Source: Candidatus Bathyarchaeota archaeon (GTDB lineage: Archaea; Thermoproteota; Bathyarchaeia; Bathyarchaeales; Bathycorpusculaceae). Taken from it: a DNA stretch of 64,000 nucleotides. Below the pieces are notes generated by a model. That model made no database searches. It saw only the letters and a list, made by a program, of their open reading frames with translations, and was not told where the DNA came from. Position numbers and translations under genes: made by a program. Below, one piece after another: positions 1,510 to 27,103 of the stretch. The stretch spans positions 1,728,001 to 1,792,000 of the forward strand of contig OY970280.1 in NCBI GenBank assembly GCA_963715865.1. The letters are read 5' to 3'. How positions within the stretch are numbered: position 1 is the stretch's first letter; every line of letters starts with the position of its first letter.

Positions 1510-2487
1510 ATGAACAAAATGGTCACACTCAAAAATATACAGCAAGCACAAAACACCATAGCACCCTACGCCAAGCCCACGCCACTAACTCGCTCAAAGT
1601 TTCTAAGCGAACTATGCAGCGACGATGTCTTTTTGAAACTTGAAAACCAGCAGGTAACTCACTCCTTCAAAATTCGCGGAGTAATAAACAAACTACTCAA
1701 CTTATCACCTGAAGAAAAAGCCAGAGGAGTAGTAACGGCTTCAGCAGGCAATCACGGTCAAGCAGTAGCTTTTGGTGCTCAAAAGCTGGGTTTCTCAGCA
1801 AAAATCGTAGTGCCCACTAACACGCCGAAAATTAAAGTGGATGGCATAAAACAGTACGGTGCCGACCTCTTATTGTTCGGTGAAACTTACTCTGAGGCTG
1901 AAAAGAAAGCCAAAGAAATCGCAACACAAGAAGGATGCTTCTACATTTCTCCTTATAATGACGAGTTGATTGTGGCTGGACACGGAACCGTCGGGTTAGA
2001 AATCCTTAAAGCACTTCCAACCGTTGACGTCGTCATTGTGCCTGTTGGCGGAGGAGGCTTAATTTCAGGCATAAGCATAGCCGTTAAAAGCCTAAAACCC
2101 AACGTGCAAGTTATCGGCGTACAATCCGAAGCTTCACCCATCATGTTCGAGTCTTTGAAGGCGGGCAAAATCGTTCCTCCACACAGACACGAACCCTACA
2201 CCATTGCTGAAGGGCTATCCGGAGGCATCGAAAAAGGCTCCATCACATTCACCATCGCTCAGCAATACGTTGACGAGGTAATGCTGGTCAGAGAAGAATC
2301 CATTAGGCATGCGGTTTACTTGCTTTGGAAAAACGAAAAACAAGTGGTGGAAGGCTCAGGCGTGGCAGGCGTCGCAATGCTGCTGGAAAACAACGACTCA
2401 TTCACGGGGCAAACTGTTGCTGTAGTCATAACCGGTGGAAACATTGACGACTCGCTGTTTAAGAGCATTTTAGCTTCCGAAGAATAA
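1510..2487 (+). CDS. ilvA: Threonine/serine dehydratase (PLP-dependent, no ACT extension)
   Basis: LKLEN..HSFKIRG PLP-lysine motif, ASAGNHGQAVA, VPVGGGGLISG. Confidence 0.85.
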   Translation: MNKMVTLKNIQQAQNTIAPYAKPTPLTRSKFLSELCSDDVFLKLENQQVTHSFKIRGVINKLLNLSPEEKARGVVTASAGNHGQAVAFGAQKLGFSAKIVVPTNTPKIKVDGIKQYGADLLLFGETYSEAEKKAKEIATQEGCFYISPYNDELIVAGHGTVGLEILKALPTVDVVIVPVGGGGLISGISIAVKSLKPNVQVIGVQSEASPIMFESLKAGKIVPPHRHEPYTIAEGLSGGIEKGSITFTIAQQYVDEVMLVREESIRHAVYLLWKNEKQVVEGSGVAGVAMLLENNDSFTGQTVAVVITGGNIDDSLFKSILASEE

Positions 2488-2493
2488 TCGTCT

Positions 2494-2979
2494 TTAGCCG
2501 AGTTTGTAGCCTATTTTTCGCAAGAACCCACGCCGCTCCTTAACGTCAGCGTCGGTCTCTATGCCTTTGCTTTTCAAGCCATCAACAACGCCAACAATGC
2601 CTCTGCCCTGAGCAGTTTCAGCAATTATTACTTCTAGCGGGTTAGCTGTAGCTGCGTAAACAGTGCATACTTCAGGCACTTTCTTGATTTTGTCGAGAAC
2701 GTTTAATGGGTAAGCATTTTTTATGTAAATGAGAAAGCTGTGGCCGCAACCGATTTCAAAGGCTTTTTCCGCTGCCAAACTCCTCAGTTCCTCGTCATTT
2801 CCTTCATGCCGAACTAAGCAAGGTCCTGAGCTCTCGCAGAAACCTAGACCAAATTTAATATCGGGCACAGAATTAACCAGTGCCTCATACAAGTCTTCAG
2901 CGGTTTTTATGAAGTGAGCCATGCCTAAGATGATGTTGCAGTCTTTAGGCGGGTCAATTTTAACTGTTTTAAACTCCAA
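2494..2979 (-). CDS. Adenosine-specific kinase family (DUF355) protein
   Basis: [48 protein letters not shown]. Confidence 0.85.
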
Positions 2980-3206
2980 ACCTTAAGCCTCCAAAGCTAA
3001 TGACTTATCAGCGCTTTTAACATATAACTTTTTTAAAACAACTTGTAAGTTGCTTTTTGAAAAGCCCATTCAAGAGCAAGCGTTTAACAATGTATATTAT
3101 GGCTCTTTATTTAACGATAAATTTTATATGCGTCAATGCGTTGCATAGATAAGTCGTGCAAGAAGCAGTTTTTGCACAATAAACAGATATAAGGAGTTGA
3201 AAAGTA

Positions 3207-3350
3207 GTGTCCGAGAAAGAAATGCATAAAGCAACTTGCGCTGAATGCGGAAAAGAATGTGAAGTTCCATTCAAGCCAGATCCAAGCAGGCCAGTTTATT
3301 GCCGAGAATGCTTTGCTAAAAAACGACCAGCAAGGCCAAGACGATATTAA
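3207..3350 (+). CDS. CxxC-x17-CxxC zinc-finger domain protein (47 aa)
   Basis: Manual translation from GTG gives MSEKEMHKATCAECGKECEVPFKPDPSRPVYCRECFAKKRPARPRRY. It is below the ORF-track cutoff. GGAG upstream. Confidence 0.85.
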   Translation: MSEKEMHKATCAECGKECEVPFKPDPSRPVYCRECFAKKRPARPRRY

Positions 3351-3488
3351 GCTAACCGCTTAACCCATTAAATCTCTAAATTTATTCATTATTTTTTTTA
3401 AGTTTTTCATTATTTTTCTGCGTTAGCCCTGTTTTTGCACGAACAAAAGCTAAATATCATTGAATAGTTAATCAATGGGGAAAAGCAA

Positions 3489-3562
3489 GGGCCGGTAGTT
3501 CAGCTGGTATGAACGCTTGACTTGCACTCAAGAGGTCGGGGGTTCAAATCCCCCCCGGTCCA
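3489..3562 (+). tRNA. tRNA-Ala(TGC)
   Basis: Full cloverleaf: acceptor GGGCCGG/CCGGTCC+A, anticodon arm CTTGA-CTTGCAC-TCAAG, T arm GGGGG-TTCAAAT-CCCCC. No intron and no encoded CCA. Confidence 0.95.
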
Positions 3563-3876
3563 CTTCAAAATTGTTTTCAAATTCTTGCGAAGAAGAGGTA
3601 GCAGTCGAAGCATAATAACCCGTGAAGCATTTAAGCAACCCTAAAAAAATCGACCCTGCGCGCTGTTCAGATCATTGGAGGCCAACTGGCAAGAGAATAC
3701 CGTGCTCATCGCAAAACAGCACACACGTAACCGGTGGATTTCTTACACTGCGCTACCAACGGTAAGACCAATGATAGATCTGAAGGATCAAAGAAGCGTA
3801 TATATCCTTCAACTTAGATTGCTCTGAGCTTGTTTTAAATACTTAAACGCTCCAATTAATATGTGGGGAAGGAATA

Positions 3877-4077
3877 GTGTTGGAAGTACAACATGTGTGC
3901 TTCAATGAGTTCCCCGATCAATGCGTAGGATGCCCAGAATACAGTGAAACAAGGCAAGATCAGGCAACGCAACTCATATTGCTTACAGGGATGGGGATGA
4001 TGTACCCGCCATACGCGAAAAAAATCGTCAAAGAATGCAAGCGGTATCACAAGCGCAAAGTTGAATATCTGAGGTAG
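3877..4077 (+). CDS. Small Cys-containing hypothetical protein
   Basis: 66-aa ORF with 4 Cys. Only plausible gene in the first segment. No recognised family. Confidence 0.35.
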   Translation: MLEVQHVCFNEFPDQCVGCPEYSETRQDQATQLILLTGMGMMYPPYAKKIVKECKRYHKRKVEYLR

Positions 4078-4420
4078 AAAGAAGCTCAGCGCAACCCCGT
4101 ATAAGCAACCATAGAATAGACAAAGTTGAATGCGGAAACTAAGTATCGGGGAAAAGTCTCGATTTCTATGCCACTTCTTAGATTGCGCTAAAAATAGCTA
4201 AATGAATGCTGGGTGAATTATCATATGAGTCGCACTTTTTAGAGCCGCTTTTCTTGGTTTGGATTTATCAGCGCTCGCCTCCTCTCTAGTCATAAGATTT
4301 GTCCTTGAGAATCGATTCGTAGTCTTACTTATAGAAAAGAACAGAAAAAGAAAACACAGAAAAGCTCACCACTGGCACGAGTTCAAATCTTTGTCACTCT
4401 TAGAAGATGAAAAAAACAAA

Positions 4421-4481
4421 AAATAGGGGAATTGCGGGTGACATCTCCATTGTAGGCGGGGTTCAAATCCCCCCCGGTCCA
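4421..4481 (+). repeat. att-like site R2: non-tRNA arm plus exact 24-bp tRNA-Ala 3' end
   Basis: 4458-4481 GGGGTTCAAATCCCCCCCGGTCCA is identical to 3539-3562. The preceding arm GGGGAATTGCGGGTGACATCTCCATTGTAG is nearly identical to the arm of R4. Confidence 0.9.
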
Positions 4482-4671
4482 TTGTGCGGCTTGAACCCAA
4501 CACGGTTCAAATCCCATAGAGACTAGAACTATTTTGGGTTCAGAACTGATTAGATTCAAGATGTACATTTCAAGTTCCGGGTTTTTCCACTTGTCCTAAT
4601 CGCTTGTTAAGCAAAGCTTTATTCGTTGTTCCACTCATAAATTCTGTTATCACATTCATGGAGGCGAATTC

Positions 4672-4842
4672 ATGGCAAAATGTAAAACATGCGGAACAGA
4701 AGCTGCTTCACCGAGGAAGAAATGGGTTATGGCAGGTAGAGCCGACAAAACAGGAAAGAAAACCCAGTTGGAAATTGGACTTTTCGACTGCGCAAAATGC
4801 AAAAAAACCTTCCGCGCTACCCTAAGCAAAAAGAAGATCTAA
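4672..4842 (+). CDS. Cren7-like chromatin protein with two CxxC pairs (56 aa)
   Basis: Manual translation gives MAKCKTCGTEAASPRKKWVMAGRADKTGKKTQLEIGLFDCAKCKKTFRATLSKKKI, matching the Cren7 pattern K-x-W-x-[LM]-A...IGLF...K-x-FR. GGAGG SD upstream. Missed by the ORF track. Confidence 0.75.
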   Translation: MAKCKTCGTEAASPRKKWVMAGRADKTGKKTQLEIGLFDCAKCKKTFRATLSKKKI

Positions 4843-4923
4843 GACTGCTTGAAACTGACAGCACATCAAATCACTCCGTCTTAACTTTAAGAATCCATTT
4901 TCCTTTAGGATTGCCGTCTAAAT

Positions 4924-5097
4924 CTACCCCCTGCCCTTTAACACTTTAAATTCGCCCTGTTTCAAACCCAAATTTTGCATGGCGTATTCTGTTGCTTCTT
5001 TAATCGTACAGAATCCAGCTGGTTTCTTTGCCTCGGTCTTAGTAAATCCCCATTCTGGCGGAACTAAACTGTCTATCTGCAAAACTCTTAATCTCAT
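4924..5097 (-). CDS. Small hypothetical protein (57 aa)
   Basis: Manual translation MRLRVLQIDSLVPPEWGFTKTEAKKPAGFCTIKEATEYAMQNLGLKQGEFKVLKGRG. Perfect GGAGGTGA SD 7 nt upstream. Confidence 0.5.
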   Translation of the reverse strand: MRLRVLQIDSLVPPEWGFTKTEAKKPAGFCTIKEATEYAMQNLGLKQGEFKVLKGRG

Positions 5098-5353
5098 TCC
5101 TCTCTCACCTCCTCAAGGAAAATAGCGAAATATTCTTTGACGCGACCGTCTCGTTACTTGATGTCTTCGCTCCAGCCATTATAGAATGGAAATCGCTGTT
5201 AAAGCTTGCTTATCCCCCTAAAAAGTCTCCTTCAAGCCAATTTTATGTATCAGAGAAAAATAGGGAACGCGCGGGAAGCTTCTATACACTGGCAACGTAA
5301 GGCTTTTGTGAAGGGTATTTAGGCATCCGCTACACTATAAGAAGCGATGTTTA

Positions 5354-5914
5354 ATGCCGAAGACTAAAGCCATAATAAACATTCAGAACGTTGTTGCTTC
5401 GGCCACTTTAAATCAGAAAGTTGACTTAAACGCGATTGCGAAGAGTTATCCAACCGCAGAATATCGTCCGGACCAGTTTCCCGGATTAGTGTTTAGGCTT
5501 AAGAGACCGAAGACGGCTACGTTGATTTTTGGCTCTGGTAAAATGGTTTGTACAGGAGCAAAATCGGGAAAGGAATCCCGCAGAGCAATCATGAAAGTTG
5601 TTAAAGAACTAAAAAAGAATGGAATAATCATTATTAGCAAGCCGGACTTGAAGGTTGTGAACATCGTTGCTTCTGCAAGTCTAGGCGGAAAGGTAGATTT
5701 GGAGGAGACAGTTTCCACGCTTAGAAACACGATGTATGAGCCGGAGCAGTTTCCAGGCTTGGTCTACAGGATGGACGAGCCTAAGGTGGTCATGCTGATA
5801 TTTGCAAGCGGGAGCCTTGTTTGTGCCGGCGCGAATAAAGAACAGGACGTTTATGACGCAGTGCATAAGCTTCATGAAATATTGGAGGAACAAAACCTCA
5901 TATTCTACGAATAA
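5354..5914 (+). CDS. tbp: TATA-box-binding protein (probably a paralog)
   Basis: Two TBP repeats: NVVASA...QFPGLVFR...LIFGSGKMVCTGAK and NIVASA...YEPEQFPGLVYR...LIFASG. Confidence 0.97.
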   Translation: MPKTKAIINIQNVVASATLNQKVDLNAIAKSYPTAEYRPDQFPGLVFRLKRPKTATLIFGSGKMVCTGAKSGKESRRAIMKVVKELKKNGIIIISKPDLKVVNIVASASLGGKVDLEETVSTLRNTMYEPEQFPGLVYRMDEPKVVMLIFASGSLVCAGANKEQDVYDAVHKLHEILEEQNLIFYE

Positions 5915-6055
5915 AACTTCATATGTTAATCGCCTTCGTTTGTGCATTCCTTATCGTAGTAAAGCAGAACACGCTTGTACCCGAAAACAATGGAAAGTGA
6001 ACATATGCCTGATCTAACTCATAATACTTTTAAGAGCAAATACGCGCGCAAATCG

Positions 6056-6709
6056 TTAAGCCTCCACAGCGGGTGAATCCGTTGGAGTAATTTGTGATTC
6101 GAAGTCTTCGACGTTGGTGAGGAGTCCTCTTGTTCCAATGCTTAATTGCCTTTCCCCTCTGAAGAGAGAGGCTCGAGCGTTCTCAATTCGAACTGTATCC
6201 CCCACGGAGACACAGCCTATCTGCTCATTCCACAAACAAAGTCTGATAGTTCCCGTCTCATCCCCAATCACTGCTTTAGACACGCTTGCATAGTTGCCAT
6301 ACCTAGTAATAACACGCCTTGGTTCTGCAACCTCCAAGATTTTAGCCTTCAAACTAACGTGGTTCATCCCAGACCGCACATCTCTGATGGAGCGACCCTG
6401 GGCCTTACGCCTCTTCCTAGAAAGATATCTAAGAATCGTGTCGGTTTCCAAGAATTTTCCAAGCGGATTATTTCTCTCCAACAGAAACTCTTCAGGGACC
6501 CGAAATTGCGCAAGGACTCCAACATCATTGGTCATCAAAAAGATTTTTTTTGCGTTTATCTCACCGCGGCACTCGATTGAAATGGGGCCACAGCTGGATT
6601 TCCTGTTTTCTCCAGCTTTGACCAGTGCGCTAAAAAACTCTTCAGGGTCAACTTCATGTTTTACTGAAAGAAAAGCAAGATATGGCCCCATTGACCGTTT
6701 ATGTCTCAA
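6056..6709 (-). CDS. Single-stranded DNA-binding protein (one OB fold) with ~100-aa N-terminal extension
   Basis: C-terminal half VSLKAKILEV...IGDETGTIRLCLWNEQ...VGDTVRIENA is typical of crenarchaeal-type SSB/RPA. Confidence 0.8.
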   Translation of the reverse strand: MRHKRSMGPYLAFLSVKHEVDPEEFFSALVKAGENRKSSCGPISIECRGEINAKKIFLMTNDVGVLAQFRVPEEFLLERNNPLGKFLETDTILRYLSRKRRKAQGRSIRDVRSGMNHVSLKAKILEVAEPRRVITRYGNYASVSKAVIGDETGTIRLCLWNEQIGCVSVGDTVRIENARASLFRGERQLSIGTRGLLTNVEDFESQITPTDSPAVEA

Positions 6710-7026
6710 GGTTCTTCATCCTTTTCACTTTTCATAATGCGAGATAATTATGCTCTCTCAACCAGTCTGACCCGTTTCGTCTATACCGCCAAGTGATTTC
6801 GTCTTGCTCGTCCGTCGGAGAGCATTCAGGTTTTGGCTCCAAACAAGCAAAGGGATAGGATGGCAAAGAACGCTCGAACCGTATTCGAGGCAAATGAAGT
6901 GGCGCGTCTAGATCAGAGAAAGCGACGTCGTCTTGGTTTTTCCACGGGATTTTCAATCGGACAGCAGAAGACCAAAACACGCCGCGCCTTAATGGTTACA
7001 TAGCGCTCATATTTCGCAAGGTATTC

Positions 7027-7314
7027 CTACTCTTTTGTAAGCATTATTTCAATCGTTGAAACCATCCGCGCTCTAGTTTCGCCCTCTCTCGGCGGCATCT
7101 CCTCTGTTCCTATCGCGATTTTGCTTACTTTCAGGTCTTTTAGGAAGCGGTTTCTCGCTATTTCAGCTGCGTCAACAGCTGTAGTTATTGCTTTTCCTCT
7201 GGCCTTCAAGGTTATACCTTTAGCATTGCTCGCCGATAGGCCTGTAATTATCGCTAGAACATAGTCCATTGGCATTTTACTTCCAACGAAAACAATTCCC
7301 GATTTTTCAACCAT
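7027..7314 (-). CDS. albA: Second Alba paralog
   Basis: Highly similar to 175-465, sharing FLKDLKVSKIAIGT.EMPPREGE.R.RMVSTIEI. Confidence 0.95.
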   Translation of the reverse strand: MVEKSGIVFVGSKMPMDYVLAIITGLSASNAKGITLKARGKAITTAVDAAEIARNRFLKDLKVSKIAIGTEEMPPREGETRARMVSTIEIMLTKE

Positions 7315-7361
7315 TTTTCATCACCATTTAATCATAACGCTACTCCCCTATACTACGCAAC

Positions 7362-7373
7362 CTTCCTTATAAA
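7362..7373 (-). promoter_or_regulatory. TATA-box-containing promoter motif of second alba
   Basis: Reverse complement is TTTATAAGGAAG, identical to 74-85. Confidence 0.55.
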
Positions 7374-7539
7374 GCGATTAAACAACAGAGCATCCTGAGG
7401 ATGTTTCAGTGCGGCTCCCTTATCTTAGATTCTGGTTTTAGACACGGCACGCACATTGTGGATTTGTTTGATAAGCGTGTTTTGGCTGTGTTTAAGGAAT
7501 AAAAACCATTTACACCAATTTAGCAACGCGTGGCACGCT

Positions 7540-7990
7540 TCAGTATTCTTCCTTCTTCCAGATGTTGTATGGGCACTGTCTCCAACAGTATGTGCTTGCC
7601 TTGTAAATACAATTCTCACATTCGAGCCTGTCAAACCACCGTCTACGTCTGCTCACTGGCAGCGCCCTCCATACTCTTCTATACTGCCTTCCTCATTAAG
7701 TCTTGGATTGCGCCAGTTATTCCGTCAGGATAAAATGTATTCATAACCTTCTGAACGAACCCTCTTCAGGTAGAAGCTTATAGCCTCTTTTGTACATGAA
7801 ATTGTCCGAGAAGCATTTTGCCAAACGCGAGTGCACGTATGCCTGTTCCGAAATTGGAAAAAATTGTTTCCATTCGTGGGATTAAAAGGCAGCTTTTGGC
7901 TTCGTATCTGGTTTTAATTTCCTTGGAGAAACCGTCCTTCCCAAACTTGCAAAAGAATCCGAGAACGAAATTAAAACCACTTTTAGCCAT
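7540..7990 (-). pseudogene. Fragmented hypothetical gene(s), ending in a Cys-rich peptide (CENCIYKASTYCWRQCPYNIW)
   Basis: Protein-like stretches continue across several frame changes. No family recognised. Confidence 0.3.
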
Positions 7991-8056
7991 TTAGGAACAA
8001 TCATCCGCGCTTTAACTGCAAAGTATAAAGTTAGAAACCTTGCATTTAGTAATTTA

Positions 8057-8082
8057 TTCTACATTAGTGGAATAATGTAGAA
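8057..8082. promoter_or_regulatory. Perfect 10-6-10 inverted repeat TTCTACATTA-GTGGAA-TAATGTAGAA
   Basis: Arms are exact reverse complements. Lies between divergently oriented genes. Confidence 0.6.
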
Positions 8083-8285
8083 CCAGTAAAATCCTTGGAA
8101 GATAACCATTATACAGAAGGCGAAATCATGGGCGATCACCGATGCGAGAATTGCGGGAAGGTAGAAAATTCTAGTTGAGCGCTGGGATGATATAGGAGAT
8201 GGCTTCGGCGAATCAAGAAAAGCGCGGTTCTAATTCACAAAGCGTATATCCATGATAGTTGTAATTTATGCAGAAAGGTTTCGAT

Positions 8286-8579
8286 ATGAGACGGTCCAAG
8301 CTTGAAATGTACGTGGATATCCTTAAGGTTCTTGCGTAGCGTGGTCCATTGAAGCTAACTCACATAATGTACAAGGCTAACGTGAACTGCAAAGTGCTGA
8401 AGGAATACTTAGACTTCCTAGTCGGTCACGGCTTGGTTGAAGAAAGAATTGTGGGGAAGCGAAGAGTGGTTTACGCAACTACTCAGCGCGGCGTAACGGT
8501 TCTGAAATACTTCAGAGAACTGGAACAAGTGCTTCCTATAGTGGAAGAAGCCAGAAACGGCATGTTTGTTCCTTTTTGA
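8286..8579 (+). pseudogene. Winged-helix transcriptional regulator (MRRSKLE.. type) interrupted by in-frame TAG at 8337-8339
   Basis: ATG at 8286 gives MRRSKLEMYVDILKVLA*RGPLKLTHIMYKANVN...Y.TT.RG, a continuous wHTH across the stop. Confidence 0.8.
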
Positions 8580-8673
8580 CTTCCGTCTAAGTAAAGCGTG
8601 CACGCAAAGTTGTGGCTTTTTTGTTGGCTCTTGTTTTAGGAGGATTTTTCAGTTAAGGGTTCCGCCCCCTTTT

Positions 8674-8700
8674 GGGTTCAAATCCCCCCCGGCCCCACCA
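8674..8700 (+). repeat. att-like site R3: tRNA-Ala-type 3' half ending GGCCCCA-CCA
   Basis: GGGTTCAAATCCCCCCCGGCCCCACCA. Same T arm as 3540-3558 but a different acceptor end with encoded CCA. Lacks the shared arm. Confidence 0.85.
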
Positions 8701-9124
8701 CAACAATCCAAACCCAATTCGCGGATCATATTATTTGGTGCTTTCTGAACAATTTGACCACCTTAAATTCGTATATGAACTCAAAATCAGCATCTATTTA
8801 GGTCCAGATGCTTTCTTTTTGTTTCTTGCTTTTGTCGGGAAATAATAGGGGCTTTTTCCACTGGAAATTGCACACTATTAGTTGGCGTAATCCTTTTTTC
8901 ATTCTTTTTATTGTAGCGAAATCTTTAGCCAAGAAGTTTGAGCAGACTGGCGTAAGTTTGACGGCGTCAATGGAATAATCTGAAGACGATATGTGAATCA
9001 TTTAGAGATAGTTTTCATTTCATCTTAATTATTATTTTGGGTCATGATTTCGGGGTCATAATTGTTTTATTAATTTAACGTCACAAAGGAGTAATATATT
9101 TAGGAAAGATATGGTTGGAATTAT

Positions 9125-10423
9125 ATGCGGATTGGATTCTTCGTTTGGGAGTATCCTCCTTCAATTGTTGGAGGTCTGGGCACTTACGCGGAAAACATAA
9201 CGCGTGAATATGTTTCTATGGGGCATGATGTAACCCTTTTTACGCTCAATCCCGGCAACTTAAAAACAAGAGAAGTTATAAGGGGCGTAGAAGTTCATAG
9301 ACCACTTATTTCGGATGCAAGTAATGTTTTTCCAATGTTTGTAGTGGATGACTTAAAAAAATGGGGAACAAACATCCGCATGTTCAATGACATTTTCACC
9401 TACAACATTTTGAGTGCATCAAAATTCATAAACAGCATGCTGAAAAAGGAAAACTGCAATTTCGACGTCGTTTGCGTGCACGACTGGCTAAGCAGTATAG
9501 CTGGGATTATGGTTAAGAACGAAACGAAAATCCCAGTTGCGTTTCATGTCCATAGTACAGAATGGGGAAGAAGCGGAGGGTCAGGTTCTGGAGTTGTTTC
9601 TCATTTTGAATGGGCAACAGCTGAAAAAGCAGACAGAATCTTGACTGTGAGTCATGCTATGAGGGAAGATTTAGTGAAGCACGGTTGGTCAAGTTCTAAA
9701 ATAAGCGTTGTTTGGAATGGCGTAGATAGCGAACGATACAATTTAAAGAAATGCAAGACTGAAGAGATAGAAGCTATTCGAGAAAGATACGGCATCAAAT
9801 CAGACGAAAAAATGATACTCTTTTTAGGTAGGCTAACGTGGGTGAAAGGGGTCATGAACCTCGTTCAGGCGATGCCTATGATCTTGGCTGAATATCCAAA
9901 AGCAAAACTAGTAATTTTGGGCAAAGGAGAACAACAAAATGACATCATTGAAACCGCACGTAGACTTGGAATAGCAAAAAACGTCGTTTGCAGATTTGAT
10001 TTTGTGCCAGAAAAAGATCGTATCCTACATTACGCTGCATCTGACTTGTGTATCTTTCCTTCAACATATGAACCCTTTGGCATAGTGAGCCTAGAAGCTA
10101 TGTCAATGGAAAAGCCAATAGTTGTGGGTGCCCACGGCGTGGTCGGCTTCAGAGAACAAGTCATGCCCGATGGTCCTGACAAAAATGGTGTACACGTAAA
10201 TGGGGAGAGCCCAAGCGATATCGCATGGGGGATAAAAGAAATATTGTGTGACGATAACAGGGCTAAACAATGGGGCAAAAACGGAAGAAAACGGGTTTTA
10301 CAATATTTCCAGTGGAGAAAAGTTGCAGAACAAACGTTGCAAATATACGAGCGACTCCAGCGCCCAGATGAACAAGATGAACAGGTAACTTTCGGATTAG
10401 TTGAAAAACCATTTGTCTCATAA
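9125..10423 (+). CDS. GT4 family glycosyltransferase (glycogen synthase/RfaB-like)
   Basis: WEYPP..VGGLG, HDWL, FLGRLTWVKG, PS.YEPFGIVSLEAM. Confidence 0.92.
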   Translation: MRIGFFVWEYPPSIVGGLGTYAENITREYVSMGHDVTLFTLNPGNLKTREVIRGVEVHRPLISDASNVFPMFVVDDLKKWGTNIRMFNDIFTYNILSASKFINSMLKKENCNFDVVCVHDWLSSIAGIMVKNETKIPVAFHVHSTEWGRSGGSGSGVVSHFEWATAEKADRILTVSHAMREDLVKHGWSSSKISVVWNGVDSERYNLKKCKTEEIEAIRERYGIKSDEKMILFLGRLTWVKGVMNLVQAMPMILAEYPKAKLVILGKGEQQNDIIETARRLGIAKNVVCRFDFVPEKDRILHYAASDLCIFPSTYEPFGIVSLEAMSMEKPIVVGAHGVVGFREQVMPDGPDKNGVHVNGESPSDIAWGIKEILCDDNRAKQWGKNGRKRVLQYFQWRKVAEQTLQIYERLQRPDEQDEQVTFGLVEKPFVS

Positions 10424-10846
10424 GTGTCTTCCCGTTTCTGCTTATCCAAATCAAACAAGCATGCGTGTTCACTTTTCCCTTTTCCAAGGTTGCCCCGAAC
10501 AGAAGCGCGTCTTCAATCTGAGCCCAAATTGTAACCATGACAACTCATTGTCCAACGGAACCAATTTAACATATGCAAATCCAAAGCAGAAAAAATGCAG
10601 ATTTCACGGATTTTTTCCCGAAAGGCAAAACCCCGCCCTTCCCGCCTCAACTCCAGTTGTTCCCCAAAAAAATAACTAAAATTCGAGCACTTCACGTTTT
10701 CTGCCCTACTGCACTAGATGCACAAGTTGCAAACAACCATTCCAAATCTCATAACATGGAGGAAGAATTTCTAATCCATATTTGGCATTCACAAATCTAA
10801 TTTATTTCCATAAGTTCTTAGATATGATTGATAATGGGCGATAAAA

Positions 10847-11800
10847 ATGCACAGTAGTCTTAGGCAGGAGCGCAAAACAGCGCTACAATTGGATGAAACG
10901 CCCGCTGTTGTTAAAGCAACGGCTGATACTAGAGAGTCTTTCTGCAAGATGCTTGGGGAAGCTATTGACGAGGCATTTTCTTCTCTAGGTGAACCTACAA
11001 GAAAAGCAATATACATTCATCTGAAAAACTCGTTTGGGATTGCGAAGCGCGAAATTCCGTACAGGATCAATGATTTTTCAGATGCGCTCGAGAAAATTTT
11101 TGGACCAAGCGCCAGAAACCTGGAGATTATCTGTATAAAAAACATTCAAGCCAAAGCTAGAATTGACTACAAGTGGGATTTGCCCGAATCGAGTGGGTCC
11201 GAATTGACGTTTGAAGAATACATACGCATCGTTAAGCAGAACTATAAACAGCAAGAAAGCTATCAACGAGCGGAATCAAAGAGTAGCTCCGCCGAGAAAA
11301 AACGGGTAACTCCAGTGGCTCAAGAAAAAACAGATGAAAACAAAGTTACGTTAAAGGCTGTTAACGTGATGGTCAAGAAAGTAATTACGGTAGATGAAAA
11401 AGCGTCGGTCAAAGAAGCAGCTGACACAATGAATCAGTTCGAGATAGGCTCCGTAATTACCACCAGAAAAGGGGAGCCTATAGGCATAATTACTGAGCGA
11501 GACCTTTTGAAACGCATAGTCTCCGAGGGCAGAAACGTAAAAAAGACTAGAGTTAAAGAAATTATGTCAAGTCCATTGGTCGTTATTTCACCCAACACAG
11601 ACTTAGAAGAAGCGGCACGCTTGATGTTCGAGATGAAGATAAAGAAGCTGCCAGTAACCGAACAGAACCGCTTGGTGGGCTTGGTCAGTCTAACAGACAT
11701 AGCCCGCGCTCAGCCGATGATAAAATTCCTGCAAAAACTTGCCGCGACGCAATATACGCCGAAAAGCATACAGAAAGTCTTAAATTGCTACATTGTTTAG
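10847..11800 (+). CDS. CBS-pair protein with an N-terminal archaeal helical domain (DUF3227-like)
   Basis: C-terminal tandem CBS (VMVKKVITV...GIITERD...IMSSPLV...GLVSLTD). N-terminal AIDEAFSSLGE...IP.R..DFSDALEKIFG. Confidence 0.8.
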   Translation: MHSSLRQERKTALQLDETPAVVKATADTRESFCKMLGEAIDEAFSSLGEPTRKAIYIHLKNSFGIAKREIPYRINDFSDALEKIFGPSARNLEIICIKNIQAKARIDYKWDLPESSGSELTFEEYIRIVKQNYKQQESYQRAESKSSSAEKKRVTPVAQEKTDENKVTLKAVNVMVKKVITVDEKASVKEAADTMNQFEIGSVITTRKGEPIGIITERDLLKRIVSEGRNVKKTRVKEIMSSPLVVISPNTDLEEAARLMFEMKIKKLPVTEQNRLVGLVSLTDIARAQPMIKFLQKLAATQYTPKSIQKVLNCYIV

Positions 11801-11849
11801 CGCAATGCAATTGTTAGTGCCCCAGCCCGCTGAGGAAGCGCGCGCTCTT

Positions 11850-12170
11850 CTATTGGTTCACCCTTCGCCAGCGAAGTTGAACCTGTACTCTCTTGATGTA
11901 GCCCTGTTTTTCCAAGGAAATTAGACTGCGGTGAACTGAAGTATATTCCTTTGATTTGTACTCTATGATTTTGCCAAAAATCATCTCGGCAATTTCCTTG
12001 GTTGCCATGTCAGGTTTTATCTTTAGCATTTCCAAAATTCTTTTTTGGTTTTTAGAGAGACCAGCCAAATTCTGCAGCACGCTCTTGAGAGCTTCAATTG
12101 TTTTGTCAAAATTTAAATCTTTAACGCGCACTATAACTGCAGTTCTGATGGCTAGAATATAACAAAACAT
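11850..12170 (-). CDS. Winged-helix DNA-binding protein
   Basis: LSKNQKRILEML...TKEIAEMIF...SVHRSL.SLEKQGYI. Start uncertain. Confidence 0.65.
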   Translation of the reverse strand: MFCYILAIRTAVIVRVKDLNFDKTIEALKSVLQNLAGLSKNQKRILEMLKIKPDMATKEIAEMIFGKIIEYKSKEYTSVHRSLISLEKQGYIKRVQVQLRWRRVNQ

Positions 12171-12303
12171 GAAATATATACGAAGCGCGCATGGTATTGT
12201 GCAAATCCCTTAACGAAATAAATATTTAACTTCGCGCTTGCACCTTAATTAAGGGCACCCGCTACTCGGATAAAAATTCATGCAAATCCAATAGGACCCA
12301 ACA

Positions 12304-12372
12304 AAAAAATGGGGATTTGCGGGTGACATCTCCACTGTAGACGGGGTTCAAATCTCGCCCGGTCCACTTCAA
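12304..12372 (+). repeat. att-like site R4: shared arm plus tRNA-Ala 3' half plus CTTCAA tail
   Basis: 12343-12372 matches 3539-3568 at 28/30 positions. The arm closely matches R2. Confidence 0.9.
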
Positions 12373-12467
12373 CAACACCAGTAATCTAGTAAGAATTCAT
12401 GATGTTGTCAATTTTCAAATGCGTTCCAATCCTGTAACAAGGCTTTAGTAACCGTTTATCCATAACA

Positions 12468-12698
12468 TTGTCTGGTGATGTGGTGAAATTCGGTGTTGTA
12501 GTCGAAAAAGATGAAGATGGCTATTATGTTGCGTCCGTTCCCGAGTTGCCCGGTTGCCACACCCAAGCTAAAACTCTTGATGAAGTAATGAAGAGAATTA
12601 AAGAGGCCATTCAACTTTGCTTGGAAGTCGAAGGAACGAAAGGCAAGGGACGGAACGAACTCGTGGGAGTCCAGTTTGTAGAAGTTCAAGCTGAATGA
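12468..12698 (+). CDS. hicB: HicB family antitoxin
   Basis: VEKDEDGYYVASVPELPGCHTQAKTLDE...IKEAI.L.LE. Confidence 0.92.
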   Translation: MSGDVVKFGVVVEKDEDGYYVASVPELPGCHTQAKTLDEVMKRIKEAIQLCLEVEGTKGKGRNELVGVQFVEVQAE

Positions 12699-12924
12699 GC
12701 TTAAAGCCTCAACCAGCTAAGAAAATAATTAAAGTGCTCTCCAAGTTGGGTTTTGAAGTTGTAAGAAAACGAGGCAGTCATGTTATCCTGAAGCATGCTG
12801 ATGGAAGGCTGACTGTGGTTCCAGTTCATGCAGGAGAGGAAAAGGCTCTGGGCTGCTAAATAAGATAATTAAGGACACGGGACTATCGAAAGAGGAATTC
12901 ATCAAGTTATTAGAAACTGCCTGA
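12695..12924 (+). pseudogene. hicA: HicA family toxin with a 1-nt frameshift (premature TAA at 12857-12859)
   Basis: MSLKP..AKKIIKVLSKLGFEVVRKRGSHVILKH.DGR.TVVPVH then GSGLLNKIIKDTGLSKEEF in a shifted frame. ATGA overlap with hicB. Confidence 0.88.
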
Positions 12925-12966
12925 CTGACTCAAATTCAACTTGTTACACTTTTGCATCCAGACATG

Positions 12967-13034
12967 AAAAAATTGAATCCGCGGAGGTAATCTCCGCTTG
13001 CGTGGGGGGCTCAAATCCTCCCGGTTCACTTCAA
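12967..13034 (+). repeat. att-like site R5 (degenerate arm plus tRNA-Ala 3' half plus CTTCAA tail)
   Basis: GGGGCTCAAATCCTCCCGGTTCACTTCAA, preceded by an A-tract and GCGGAGGTAATCTCCGC, which is related to the R2/R4 arm. Confidence 0.8.
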
Positions 13035-13089
13035 CATTATTTTCAACCACCCTGATAATTTTTGCTTGATACTTCTATTTTCTTCACAG

Positions 13090-14313
13090 TCAATTTTTTT
13101 GTTGTTCTAGCCAGTTTCTTGATTTCATTACCGTTTTCCCTGCAACTTTTAATGACAATGCATCGTCATAGGGGCATATTTCAACGCATCGTGCGCAAAG
13201 TATACACCTTGATTCAGTTACGTCGCCCCCTTTTTTCTCGTACACTTGTGTAGCTTGAGTTGGACAAACGCGTTTGCAAACACCGCACTTGGTGCATTTT
13301 TGTTCGTTCTTCTCCAAGCGTGTTAGGGCGATTTGTTTGAAAGGGGTGAAAGTGCTGAATAAGCCTGTTAACGCGCCTAGAGGGCAGATTCTGCACCAGA
13401 ATCGCCTATAGGCTAAAGCTAAAATTGTGAATGCAATTAAGATAGCTAAGTTTATCGAAGTAAGATAACCGCCTGTTATCCACAGCGGTCCATAGGCTAT
13501 TTGCGAGACGTATGAAAACTTCATCGAGCCTAAACCACATTCGATTAACACGCAAAGGGGCCTCATGGGACAAACTAAACAAAAAGGCTCGTTAAGGTTG
13601 CCTACAAGGCCTGCTTCGGTTCCTTCAGGTCCTCCTGGTCTAGTGCCTGGAATAAGCTGAGCGCCAAAAATGGCGTACGAGGCAAAAATAACACTAAGAA
13701 TCAAAAAAACCGCAATAATGATATACCGTGATTGTCCAAGCGCCGTGTTTGTCTTGTCGGAAAAACGAAAATGCCGCAGCCGTAGGGCTTTGCGAATTCG
13801 TGTTAACACATCCATATATAGGCCGAAAGGACACAGCCAACCGCAGAAAAATCTTCCTAAAACAACAGACGCCACAGCTACCAAGCCGAAAACTATAGCT
13901 AGCTTCTCCAAACCAGAGGTAGAGTAGAAAACCTCGTAGCCTCTTGGATAGTTCCAAAATGGGAAAATGTAAGCTTGAATTTGCCAAATTGGACAAGTAA
14001 CTGTTCGCCCATTAGGATAGTAACATGCTAAAATAGGAACAGATAAGCCATCTGGAAATTGGTTCCCAAAAAAATTAGTCCCAACTAACCGGTCGCGTGG
14101 CGAAGACCCCAAAGGCTGGAATATTGGGACGTTGAAGGGACCTAATATAAGCCCCATAAACACAGCAAAGACGGCGGCTATTTGAATAAAAAATCGAAGC
14201 GAGCTGACTTTACGGGTTTTGTTTTTGGCGAATCTAAAGATAAGATAAATTCCAACCAACACTATCAAAACGTATACAGGTAATACGATTGCACTGGGAG
14301 CCTCCCACGACAT
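13090..14313 (-). CDS. Membrane-bound 4Fe-4S protein (NapH/MauN-like polyferredoxin)
   Basis: GRFFCGWLCPFG, FCLVCP, RFWCRICPLG, and two CxxCxxCxxxCP motifs, with transmembrane helices. Confidence 0.88.
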   Translation of the reverse strand: MSWEAPSAIVLPVYVLIVLVGIYLIFRFAKNKTRKVSSLRFFIQIAAVFAVFMGLILGPFNVPIFQPLGSSPRDRLVGTNFFGNQFPDGLSVPILACYYPNGRTVTCPIWQIQAYIFPFWNYPRGYEVFYSTSGLEKLAIVFGLVAVASVVLGRFFCGWLCPFGLYMDVLTRIRKALRLRHFRFSDKTNTALGQSRYIIIAVFLILSVIFASYAIFGAQLIPGTRPGGPEGTEAGLVGNLNEPFCLVCPMRPLCVLIECGLGSMKFSYVSQIAYGPLWITGGYLTSINLAILIAFTILALAYRRFWCRICPLGALTGLFSTFTPFKQIALTRLEKNEQKCTKCGVCKRVCPTQATQVYEKKGGDVTESRCILCARCVEICPYDDALSLKVAGKTVMKSRNWLEQQKN

Positions 14314-14380
14314 CTTTGCGCTTCCTACTTTTTATTTAATGCCGAGCCTTTGCTAATTAGCCTAAAGCACTTTCACCAAC

Positions 14381-15067
14381 TTATTTTTCACCCGAATGCT
14401 CTTTGCTTTTCACTTTAATTACGATAGCGACAATGATTGTGACAGCCACTACCATTGCTATTACAATGGCTACTGAATGCTGCTGGTAGAAAGGCAAGTT
14501 TGAACTAGACAGACCATTTCCCCCAAAGTCCCAGTGTGCAATGCTTACATTGCCAGTTACACCAGTTACAACCATTGACCCATCATGCGAAATGCTCCAT
14601 CCTTCACCCTCAGCTATGAAAACATTATTGTCAACAATAACACTCCATTCAACGCTGGCGCTCAACCCACCTTGGGAGACAAAACCAAGGTTTAAAATCT
14701 GCTTACCCTGACCTTCAATCAAATATCTTAACAGTACAATCTGAAACGAGGATGTGTTGTATGTTTGGTAAGAGAAGATTGTAACGTTAGAGTTTTGAGT
14801 TGAAATCTTGAAGTTTTCAAGCGGCTGTGAGCCATTGAGGTGCAAATTTGTAAAGGTCCAAGTGTCATTTTCAAATGTTGCCTCGGAATAGGTGCCATTT
14901 ACGGCAAAACTGATGGTGCCATTATACGAGGGGATATTGAATTTGTCTGCAGGACTGAAAGTTATGTTAGTTTGCGCTTGTGTATTAGGGCAAGTCCAAG
15001 GAAAAACTAAGACAATGACAATTATGGCAATTCCAGCTGAGACTTTGTTGTATTTAATTGTTACCAA
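14381..15067 (-). CDS. Secreted/surface protein with signal peptide and C-terminal TM anchor
   Basis: Hydrophobic N-terminus ending TQA-Q, N-glycosylation sequons, C-terminal TM followed by a basic tail. Confidence 0.75.
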   Translation of the reverse strand: MVTIKYNKVSAGIAIIVIVLVFPWTCPNTQAQTNITFSPADKFNIPSYNGTISFAVNGTYSEATFENDTWTFTNLHLNGSQPLENFKISTQNSNVTIFSYQTYNTSSFQIVLLRYLIEGQGKQILNLGFVSQGGLSASVEWSVIVDNNVFIAEGEGWSISHDGSMVVTGVTGNVSIAHWDFGGNGLSSSNLPFYQQHSVAIVIAMVVAVTIIVAIVIKVKSKEHSGEK

Positions 15068-15223
15068 GCCTCACTGCCTGCATCACTATAAGTAATTATT
15101 AAGTTTGGCTATAAGACTTTTCTAGGGTTCCAGGAAAGTTGCGGTTTAGCTTTCGGTTTGCAAAGGAAAAAGGGCGGGTTTATCCGTTTTGCCTATTAAT
15201 GAGAAGCTGTATAGGAAAATGCA

Positions 15224-16042
15224 ATGAAGAAATCGTTAGTCATAGCTGTGTTTCTCATCGTTGCCATCCTTGTTCTGAGCGCTTCAATACTGGTTTTCTT
15301 GAACAGCAATAAGCCGTCAACAAACTCCTCAGCTGTAACACATTACACTTACACCGTAGTTAACACGTATCCGCATGACCCGAATGCCTTCACTGAGGGG
15401 CTCGTGTACTCGGATGGTTTTCTGTACGAGAGCACAGGACTTGACGGCGGTTCATCTTTACGCCGCGTGGACTTGACCACAGGCAATGTGCAGCAGGAGG
15501 TTATGTTGCCGACTCAGGATTTCGGCGAAGGCATAGCCATAGTCAACAACACCATAATCCAACTAACTTGGCAGTCGCATATAGGCTTCATCTACGACAA
15601 AAACACCTTTGCAGTGCTGGGAAATTTTACTTACCCCACGGAAGGCTGGGGTTTGACCTTTGACGGCAAACAGCTAATCATGAGCGACGGCTCAGACAAC
15701 CTATACTTGCTTGACCCAACAACGTTTCAGCGGACAGGACAAATCCAAGTGCATGACGGAAACACAACTGTAGTAAACATCAACGAGCTAGAATACATCA
15801 ACGGCGACGTTTACGCCAACATCTGGCAAACAAACACAATCGCCATAATCAACCCGGAAACTGGACAAGTCAAAGCTTGGATAGACCTCACAGGACTACC
15901 AGCCGAAAACAATTCAAACCCAGAAGCCGTACTCAACGGCATAGCATACGACCAAAAAAACGACAGACTTTTCGTAACAGGCAAAGACTGGCCAAACCTC
16001 TACCAAATAAAACTAACACCATTAACCGAGCCTACAGCCTAA
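15224..16042 (+). CDS. Glutaminyl-peptide cyclotransferase (plant/bacterial beta-propeller type)
   Basis: YPHDP.AFTEGL, LYESTG, FGEGI, EGWGLT, INELEYI, VLNGIAYD, LFVTGK.W. Confidence 0.93.
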   Translation: MKKSLVIAVFLIVAILVLSASILVFLNSNKPSTNSSAVTHYTYTVVNTYPHDPNAFTEGLVYSDGFLYESTGLDGGSSLRRVDLTTGNVQQEVMLPTQDFGEGIAIVNNTIIQLTWQSHIGFIYDKNTFAVLGNFTYPTEGWGLTFDGKQLIMSDGSDNLYLLDPTTFQRTGQIQVHDGNTTVVNINELEYINGDVYANIWQTNTIAIINPETGQVKAWIDLTGLPAENNSNPEAVLNGIAYDQKNDRLFVTGKDWPNLYQIKLTPLTEPTA

Positions 16043-26698: not shown

Positions 26699-27032
26699 TT
26701 GCAAGTGAGTATTGATATATCAGAAACCGAAATATCCCTTTTAAGCCAAAAAAGCGCTTAAGAGGAATGGAAAGGATTGTAATTTAAGGGAGAGGGGCAA
26801 ACCCCCTTCACCTTACCCCTAAAGCTACCCGTCTGCACTTCTCAACATCAATTCATTCACAAAATTGTGGCAAGATTGGTTTCCTGATGGGTACAAAAAC
26901 TGTTTAACGTTCTTCACCGGCATAAGTCGAACCTTTAACCATACGCTCTCTGAGGAGATGCAAGTCTTAACAAGCAAGCTAGTTAATGCGTCAGTCTACA
27001 TTGAGCACTAAACTCAACCATAGAGTCACCAT

Positions 27033-27103
27033 GCTGAGGTGGCCGAATTGTTCAGCGACAGCCTGCAAAGCTGGGTATATGGGTTCAATTCCCGTCCCCA
27101 GTT
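27033..27103 (+). tRNA. Degenerate tRNA-Cys(GCA) (probable pseudo-tRNA)
   Basis: Cloverleaf GCTGAGG/CCCCAGT+U73, anticodon loop CTGCAAA, T arm ATGGG-TTCAATT-CCCGT. Mismatches in the acceptor (A-C), D (C-A) and anticodon (A-G) stems, and no D-loop GG. Confidence 0.7.

Follow-up and report, generated by a model that had tools for sequence, protein, structure and literature searches.

In a Candidatus Bathyarchaeota archaeon, an intact tRNA-Ala(TGC) gene is followed by four same-orientation copies of its own 3' end, which delimit a 9.5-kb array of four segments. The array lies in a stretch of 64,000 nt (contig OY970280.1, positions 1728001-1792000 of the complete 2.35-Mb genome), referred to here as the window. 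Our favoured explanation, held with moderate confidence, is that the array arose by tandem accretion and subsequent decay of integrative elements at a hot spot of integration, the attachment site (attB) being the tRNA 3' end.

The tRNA gene was called by both ARAGORN and Rfam and is the sole tRNA that either of them finds in the window. A repeat search recovered one family of five direct repeats, made up of the tRNA end (3539-3568) and of the copies at 4458-4487, 8673-8702, 12343-12372 and 13005-13034. Their spacings of 919, 4215, 3670 and 662 nt cut the 9.5 kb into four segments. Allowing up to three mismatches, the 23-mer core occurs four times in the window, compared with an expectation of 0.00 (100 shuffles). 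The site coordinates and segment sizes of the original prediction, which had been made from the sequence without database searches, were therefore correct. The elements of the series are as follows.

3489-3563, plus strand: tRNA-Ala(TGC); the attachment-site (att) core comprises T-arm and acceptor 3' strand (3539-3562)
to about 3580, plus strand: att trailer of the tRNA-Ala, CTTCAAAATTGTTTTCAA, similar to the R5 trailer and to the tRNA-Ala trailer of congeners
4409-4481, plus strand: R2, arm motif (A-run, GGGG, TTGCGGGTGACATCTCCA) and a 24-nt core identical to the tRNA
4491-4542, no strand: inverted T-loop-like repeats (TGAACCC ... GGTTCAAATCC ... GGGTTCA) at the left end of segment 2, from the repeat search
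8673-8702, plus strand: R3, tRNA-like core without arm, acceptor strand CCGGCCC
12294-12372, plus strand: R4, arm motif, core with two mismatches and CTTCAAC trailer
12964-13060, plus strand: R5, arm and core (13005-13034) both degenerate, trailer CTTCAACATTATTTTCAACC

Compared with the tRNA, the core is identical at 24 of 24 positions in R2, has two mismatches in 23 in R3 and R4, and is degenerate in R5, the most diverged copy, which is recovered by the repeat search and weakly by a profile of the arm (E 0.04). We counted this decay of the core with distance from the tRNA, from R2 to R5, in favour of serial integration; R5 is probably the oldest displaced tRNA end. R2 and R4 have a further upstream arm of 43 nt in common, so that 67 nt in total are 90% identical (4415-4481 vs 12300-12366), and the trailer CTTCAA following the tRNA is common to R1 (the tRNA itself), R4 and R5. 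R3 has no arm, and its CCGGCCC acceptor strand provides no U70 for the G3:U70 pair that marks tRNA-Ala. Could such a series result from local duplication of the tRNA 3' end, or from chance likeness of T-loops, without any mobile element? The T-loop GGTTCAAATCC is indeed common to many tRNAs and R5 is weak, but four matches were found where none is expected, the segments have nothing in common with each other beyond the repeats, and relatives have other DNA at the same place, in some cases with an integrase. We therefore regard this explanation as extremely improbable.

Comparison with relatives places a break in synteny exactly at the tRNA. In a search of 14.7 kb around the locus against 40 related genomes (given as G numbers below), the left flank is conserved to the last tRNA base (query position 2166) in the three closest genomes, with 85-88% identity, and is 76% identical in G019. 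The DNA behind the tRNA-Ala is unlike in every genome examined, and none of the window's segments stands behind the orthologous tRNA-Ala of G018, G003, G015, G020 or G012. Instead, 14 kb separate the tRNA-Ala from the gene of a 4Fe-4S protein in G020, the distance from the tRNA-Ala to a glutaminyl cyclase gene is 8.5 kb in G003 and 11.5 kb in G015, 60 kb of different DNA follow the tRNA-Ala in G012, and two alternative continuations are present in G018. Pieces of the window's segments are found elsewhere in the relatives' genomes, as in the case of segment 1 (behind a tRNA-Cys) and of a gene for the TATA-binding protein (TBP). Two features expected of an island formed by a tRNA-targeting tyrosine integrase are present: gene order is conserved up to the tRNA with variable content among relatives, and the intact tRNA at the near boundary is matched by a direct repeat of its 3' end at the far boundary. 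The comparison of cargo behind orthologous tRNA-Ala genes, which had been proposed with the original prediction, showed that content and order vary in every relative examined. The reading of the repeats as att-type copies of the tRNA 3' end, at a hot spot of integration, was likewise borne out.

As a side observation, the two continuations in the closest relative, G018, are on separate contigs (L033/L034; G018:C15 and G018:C46), which have the tRNA-Ala and 20 nt upstream of it in common and then differ; one of them carries a glycosyltransferase gene, 92% identical to that of the window, and then the cyclase gene. This suggests strain polymorphism at the same site.

The third island test concerns an integrase gene inside the element next to the tRNA. 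In G012, a 442-aa tyrosine integrase (PF00589, 83.6 bits) reads toward the tRNA-Ala, with its stop codon 57 nt from the tRNA 3' end, and a repeat of this tRNA end with the same trailer is found 45 kb away from the tRNA. Orthologs of 64-83% identity occupy the same position. For G058 and, in truncated form, for G002 this was read from the sequence; judged by coordinates beside the left-flank genes, it also applies to G013, G010, G008 and G014, so that the layout is found in at least three congeners, or in seven by coordinates. The catalytic part has its best solved-structure match (PDB) in archaeal XerA, a member of the Xer-type recombinases. In the window itself there is no match to PF00589. 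Nine matches are located elsewhere in the genome, but none represents an ortholog of the tRNA-Ala-type integrase (the best relative is 41% identical). The genome hence offers no candidate for the integrase acting in trans that had been envisaged.

The gene is intact in G012, G058 and G002; the present array retains two decayed fragments of it at R3. They emerged from a search with a profile of four integrases of the clade against 484 six-frame stop-to-stop pieces covering positions 3400-13200.

8729-8797, minus strand: integrase remnant 1, 20 residues corresponding to the last 20 of the protein (best of the 484, E 0.021; tblastn)
9059-9160, minus strand: integrase remnant 2, profile positions 277-297 (second-best of the 484, E 0.33)

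Remnant 1 points at R3 and ends about 28 nt from it; remnant 2 lies partly under the start of the glycosyltransferase gene of segment 3. The two are colinear, with the C-terminus toward R3, which is the geometry of the intact genes (about 440 aa in this family). This arrangement suggests that segment 3 is the rest of an integrase-bearing element with R4 and its arm as the far end. The earlier statement that no segment encodes an integrase therefore holds for intact genes, but not for decayed ones, and descent from integrase-bearing elements, which the original prediction had named as an indication of ordinary island decay, applies to at least segment 3. Remnants occur at other arm sites as well. 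In this genome, a 1.5-kb block behind the tRNA-Cys contains an 85-aa integrase remnant (E 1e-29) and a ketopantoate-reductase-like gene and ends with an arm site whose core is that of tRNA-Cys, and the arm site at position 195143 of the genome has a 14-aa remnant behind it. In G059, an arm site is followed by a remnant of 118 aa, and further remnants lie behind an arm site in G076 and behind the arm-less attR of the 45-kb element in G012. Separately, we noted in this genome an open frame of 117 aa (G000:C1:309652-309969) that matches the C-terminal ~105 residues of the family with 62% identity, has the same length in G071 and G041 and a similar length in G002, G046 and G064, and may be a conserved stand-alone fragment rather than a product of random decay.

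According to our proposal, the attB would extend from the T-arm of tRNA-Ala(TGC) through about 20-30 nt of trailer and would serve the ~440-aa tyrosine integrase clade of this genus. Integrase-carrying elements would have entered the tRNA one after another, each entry rebuilding the tRNA and pushing the earlier tRNA end, with everything behind it, downstream to yield R2-R5. Integrase genes would then have been lost by deletion and decay, segment 3 keeping two fragments, and the leftover would be integrase-less blocks of accessory genes between att copies. The ~45-nt arm before R2, R4 and R5 may be a conserved part of the attachment site in this family of elements, namely its arm on the side of the element. 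The sites, the variation among relatives, the integrase at the tRNA of congeners, its remnants and the population forms without single segments are observations; the order of arrival and the recombination role of the arm are inferred. As the genome has no cognate integrase, the array would now be immobile.

The arm itself is a motif of wide distribution. In R2 and R4, and weakly in R5, about 45 nt (A-run, G-run, GCGGGTGAYATCTCCAC) are fused to the T-loop. An alignment of 62 distinct arm copies from many loci defines a unit with a sharp left edge, in which A-run, G-run, 2-8 nt, GCGGGTGAYATCTCCAC, about 9 nt and GGGTTCAAAT follow each other with conservation fading rightward; after the T-loop there is most often the rest of the tRNA-Ala end with the trailer CTTCAACATC...TTTT. 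A search that allowed no more than one mismatch detected a 17-mer of the arm in 35 genomes out of 61 in the genus (1 control hit) and, across the order, in 44 of 121 genomes representing 28 of 55 genera (0 control hits). Arm sites often form same-strand arrays with spacings of 0.2-10 kb; G063, for example, has nine to ten sites within 31 kb, G076 has six or seven, and G128 has six within 7.5 kb. The cargo of such arrays is also cellular, including surface proteins, a kinase/regulator pair, phosphofructokinase and an insertion sequence. The present genome has about 20 copies according to the arm profile. Some of them are at tRNA-Cys and tRNA-Leu, with a tRNA-Cys end 1.5 kb behind tRNA-Cys and a tRNA-Leu(TAG) end 5.5 kb behind that tRNA; others are far from tRNAs and without a tRNA-like 3' part. 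A dispersal away from tRNAs, which the original prediction had listed among the outcomes speaking for ordinary island decay, is thus observed for part of the copies.

The same copies, several of them far from tRNAs and some without T-stem 3' strand or acceptor, would be expected if the arm were an independent dispersed element, either similar to repetitive extragenic palindromes (REPs) or miniature inverted-repeat transposable elements (MITEs), or a promoter, operator or terminator. It would then tend to stand beside T-loop-like hairpins, and its att resemblance would partly be a by-product. Conservation of the motif across the order would agree with this idea, as would variants in which the arm precedes other hairpins and then a T-run, and the opposite strand, on which the arm ends in CCCC and a T-run, with a zinc-ribbon open reading frame (ORF) 45-55 nt beyond in two loci. 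We nevertheless consider it distinctly unlikely. In R2 and R4, what comes behind the arm agrees with the tRNA over 22-24 nt and the trailer, and the cores at tRNA-Cys and tRNA-Leu match those tRNAs, as predicted by integration but not by dispersal of a repeat. In addition, no transposase is associated with the arm, neither an inverted partner nor a target duplication was seen, and arm sites are predicted to fold no better than shuffled sequences (z -0.3 to +1.7).

The zinc-ribbon ORFs (43-65 aa) resemble the N-terminus of the integrase and start 45-55 nt beyond the opposite-strand T-run of the arm; they are located in L062 (G058:C5) at 7076-7348, plus strand, and in L059 (G076:C9) at 14522-14665, plus strand, one of them behind a TTTAAA box. 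Arm variants (GCGCGGGAGAYATCGCCA) occur in this genome at G000:C1:648009, 235342, 709445 and 1719854 and in L032 at 4770-4816 and 9776-9827. They are followed by TTAGGGTATGTTCC rather than by a T-loop, or by a perfect hairpin and T-run (AGAGGATAA TTAC TTATCCTCT G TTTT). In G015, an arm variant is positioned 93 nt before each site of the T-loop type. Moreover, two further arm sites of this genome, at G000:C1:195063-195143 (minus strand) and 1532193-1532270 (plus strand), have a core of the tRNA-Ala type with the trailer CTTCAAC and are far from any tRNA-Ala gene, the site at 195143 heading an array of three (195143, 193041, 191744). Such far sites could reflect genome rearrangement or secondary-site integration.

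Several other identities of the arm were considered. A coding sequence was rejected, as the spacers that separate the G-run from the 17-mer and the 17-mer from the T-loop differ in length by non-multiples of 3 and stop codons differ between copies. A hairpin, of RNA or DNA, found no support, the half-palindrome GGTGAY/ATCTCC having A/T, T/T, T/G and A/G combinations that are uncompensated. A copy of the 16S rRNA 3' end was rejected, too: R2 resembles GGGGAACCTGCGG..GATCACCTCC by eye, but in alignment scores R2 is within about 2 standard deviations of shuffles and the other copies are at the mean. Upstream of intact integrase genes, an arm-like motif was looked for and is absent. Over positions 3000-14000, Rfam matches the tRNA alone, and an arm site in G041 gave a weak match to a tmRNA end (23 bits, under the cut-off). 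Ten exact hits of the 17-mer in IMG/VR were attributed to chance, as none has the flanking motif.

Several findings weigh against accretion and decay at the tRNA as the whole explanation. First, the integrase profile search revealed no remnant in segments 1, 2 and 4. Second, the intact integrase-bearing elements of G012 and G013 carry no arm at their far end, so that the association of the arm with this integrase is based on segment 3, on the tRNA-Cys block and on G059. Third, contigs with arrays of nine to ten sites, such as G063:C17, have no PF00589 match. Fourth, conservation of the 17-mer (at most one mismatch) in 28 genera exceeds what a passive att arm would need. The strict order-wide conservation of the arm, the arm-less elements and the long integrase-free arrays are left unexplained by our proposal.

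The fifth point stems from population variants, for which contigs from four peat or wetland metagenome runs were aligned to positions 2000-16000. All runs listed as containing the stretch are metagenomes of peat and wetland, with no RNA run among them. In two runs, position 4474 (inside R2) is joined via 12 other letters to 8709 (just after R3), so that segments 1 and 3 are present without segment 2. This joint means that an internal site, and not the tRNA alone, has recombined, be it by insertion or by excision. A second form, also found in two runs, has 12376 (just after R4) connected to 13095, where the 4Fe-4S gene ends, with 83 other letters in between; segment 4 and R5 are absent. As their breakpoints fall on the sites, the two forms also count in favour of our proposal. 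Both joints are moderate evidence, being based on short contigs with sides of 30-34 nt, and once of 128 nt.

Other joints were seen as well. In three runs, 9156 is connected to 11584, i.e. from the glycosyltransferase start to the end of a CBS-domain gene, with 2.4 kb absent and breakpoints off the att sites; depth over 9472-10405 is 5-20 times below that of neighbouring DNA. Taken together, joint and depth show that, in three of the four runs, most of the population does not have the glycosyltransferase gene. A backward joint from 7418 to 4485, seen in one run, may represent a circle, a tandem copy or the order of another strain; there is no site at 7418. A joint from 3568 to 4504 has one side of just 20 nt and lands in another T-loop-like sequence; it was not used. 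Circular junctions at the sites, for which the original prediction had called, were not seen in the contigs of these metagenomes.

Recombination at an internal site, implied by the variant that lacks segment 2 alone, is what would be expected of a cassette-capture platform, in which arm and T-loop core form a dedicated, attC-like site and circles are inserted or excised at the tRNA or at internal sites by an integrase in trans, e.g. one supplied by an incoming element. Such a platform would account for one site module being common to blocks with unrelated cargo and present on tRNA-Ala, tRNA-Cys and tRNA-Leu cores; for the same-strand arrays of up to nine to ten sites, 0.2-10 kb apart, in many genomes, some of them on integrase-free contigs; and for a block in another family that consists of the TBP gene between tRNA and arm. 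We still regard it as rather doubtful. No cognate integrase is encoded in this genome, integrase remnants within blocks are a sign of decay and not of capture, R3 and the far end of the G012 element are without arm, the blocks hold several genes in mixed orientation with no common promoter evident, and circles joined at the sites are missing from the contigs. Of the integron-like gene capture at tRNA-derived sites that had originally been suggested, the att duplicates, the variable cargo and the segment-less forms have stood up, but the integrase remnants, the lack of a cognate integrase and the mixed orientation run counter to it.

Tandem accretion with decay also has precedents. Tandem islands at a small RNA gene are known, such as the ssrA-specific islands of Dehalococcoides (McMurdie et al. 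2011; PMC3146451). The present locus has in common with them repeated 3'-end integration with one direct repeat per event, islands in a row and strain-variable accessory cargo. It differs in its archaeal host, in that most blocks have no integrase, and in the ~45-nt arm that is common to blocks, order-wide and also present on other tRNA cores. Cis-mobilizable elements (CIMEs) are att-bounded blocks without recombination genes that derive from integrase-bearing elements and lie in tandem with them at one attB. The blocks of our array are att-bounded and lack intact recombination genes, as CIMEs do; unlike in CIMEs, there are no conjugation genes and no neighbouring intact element in this genome. 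The evidence for mobilisation of the CIME type here, in a genome without cognate integrase, consists entirely of the population variants that lack a single segment. CIMEs and the accretion of streptococcal integrative elements are treated in two reviews (PMC5704250, PMC7563491). Tandem islands and their integrase-less, CIME-like derivatives are a known pattern, which the locus appears to fit.

Integrons have been reported in Archaea (Ghaly et al. 2022; PMC9668308). As in integrons, there is an array of blocks, each followed by a site-like module of ~60-110 nt in one orientation, beside a fixed anchor site. In contrast to integrons, where an IntI-type integrase lies beside an attI site with a cassette promoter, the anchor has no such integrase (no PF00589 match in the window), and a common promoter is not evident. 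Among solved structures (PDB), the related integrase is closest to Xer-type recombinases. The sites are tRNA-derived instead of attC hairpins and the module folds no better than shuffles; in place of co-oriented cassettes with a single ORF and a folded attC at the end, there are blocks of 1-4 genes on both strands, with integrase remnants inside. Archaeal SSV1-type elements are similar with respect to tRNA targets and integrated elements decaying in the chromosome. Unlike in the SSV1 type, where an att core inside the integrase gene leaves N- and C-terminal halves at opposite ends, integration does not disrupt the integrase of the relatives. Their gene stops 57 nt from the tRNA, from which it follows that the att site is not inside it. 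A split integrase of the SSV1 type was accordingly dismissed for this locus, given the intact 425-442-aa genes beside the tRNA in G012 and G058 and remnants that are C-termini with their own stop. Casposons use a Cas1 integrase and have terminal inverted repeats and a 14-15-bp target duplication at the tRNA end; the genome gives no PF01867 (Cas1) hit, and there is no inverted arm copy at left ends, so this type was rejected, too.

Bathyarchaeia are abundant and uncultured, and the movement of their accessory genes is poorly known. The locus and its relatives offer a testable system, consisting of an attachment site (tRNA-Ala T-arm and trailer), an integrase clade and a 17-nt motif that marks the ends of accessory-gene blocks in 28 genera. 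The interest lies mainly in this order-wide motif and in the testable link between motif, tRNA-derived cores and one integrase family. If the motif functions as a site of recombination or control, it would account for the spread and stacking of small blocks without integrase in these archaea, among them blocks with extra copies of TBP, SSB and Alba, glycosyltransferases or toxin-antitoxin pairs, and metagenomes could be screened for such blocks with it as a practical marker. Otherwise the locus would be an ordinary, if clear, example of islands that accrete and decay. Should capture be true after all, arrays of up to ten blocks would represent a capture platform at tRNA sites, parallel to integrons in function and of independent origin.

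The segments carry 1-4 genes each, on both strands, and are not set apart by base composition. Their cargo, like that of the island with an integrase in G058, is made up of accessory genes of cellular type, a further point in favour of our proposal.

3581-4414, no strand: body of segment 1, a conserved non-coding stretch and a Cys-rich ORF of 66 aa (3877-4077)
5354-5914, plus strand: TBP paralog, segment 2 (PF00352, E 7e-62)
6056-6709, minus strand: SSB-like OB-fold protein, segment 2 (PF21473)
7027-7314, minus strand: Alba paralog, segment 2 (PF01918)
8277-8579, plus strand: winged-helix (HTH_45) gene with an in-frame stop, segment 2
9125-10423, plus strand: family-4 glycosyltransferase, segment 3 (PF00534 and PF13439), low depth in three peat runs
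10847-11800, plus strand: CBS-domain protein, segment 3 (PF00571)
11850-12170, minus strand: small winged-helix protein, segment 3 (weak HTH_24/MarR_2 matches), start 130 nt left of the R4 arm
12468-12859, plus strand: HicB antitoxin (12468-12698) and HicA toxin (12695-12859), segment 4 (PF15919, PF07927)
13090-14313, minus strand: 4Fe-4S protein of the right flank, adjoining, as it also does in G020, G012 and G008, the gene for glutaminyl cyclase (15224-16042)

The flanks are of housekeeping type, with a pyridoxal-phosphate (PLP) enzyme and adenosine kinase on the left and the 4Fe-4S protein and glutaminyl cyclase on the right. For segment 1, DNA with 85% identity is found some 0.5 kb behind the tRNA-Cys of G018 and G003. 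At its start, ~290 nt of non-coding sequence (3581-3870) show 85-90% identity to DNA downstream of tRNA-Cys in the same two genomes. A structured RNA was rejected for these 290 nt, as the fold z-score was +1.15 against shuffles and no Rfam match was obtained; the 66-aa Cys-rich ORF has no Pfam match.

Judged by sequence identity, the TBP paralog appears to travel with mobile DNA; the genome holds at least two further TBP genes (at 1614396 and 919210). The paralog is 91% identical in G019 and 83% in another family, compared with 76% or less for the left flank. In that other family (G039), it is the single gene between a tRNA-Arg(CCT) and an arm site. The loci compared were 5354-7314 of the window, 4500-5830 of L073 (G039:C110) and 4989-6289 of L039 (G019:C94). 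Finally, at about 27031-27103 on the plus strand, the window contains a tRNA-Cys(GCA)-like sequence without ARAGORN call, which is 86% identical to the tRNA-Cys of G018 and may be a pseudo-tRNA or another displaced att copy.

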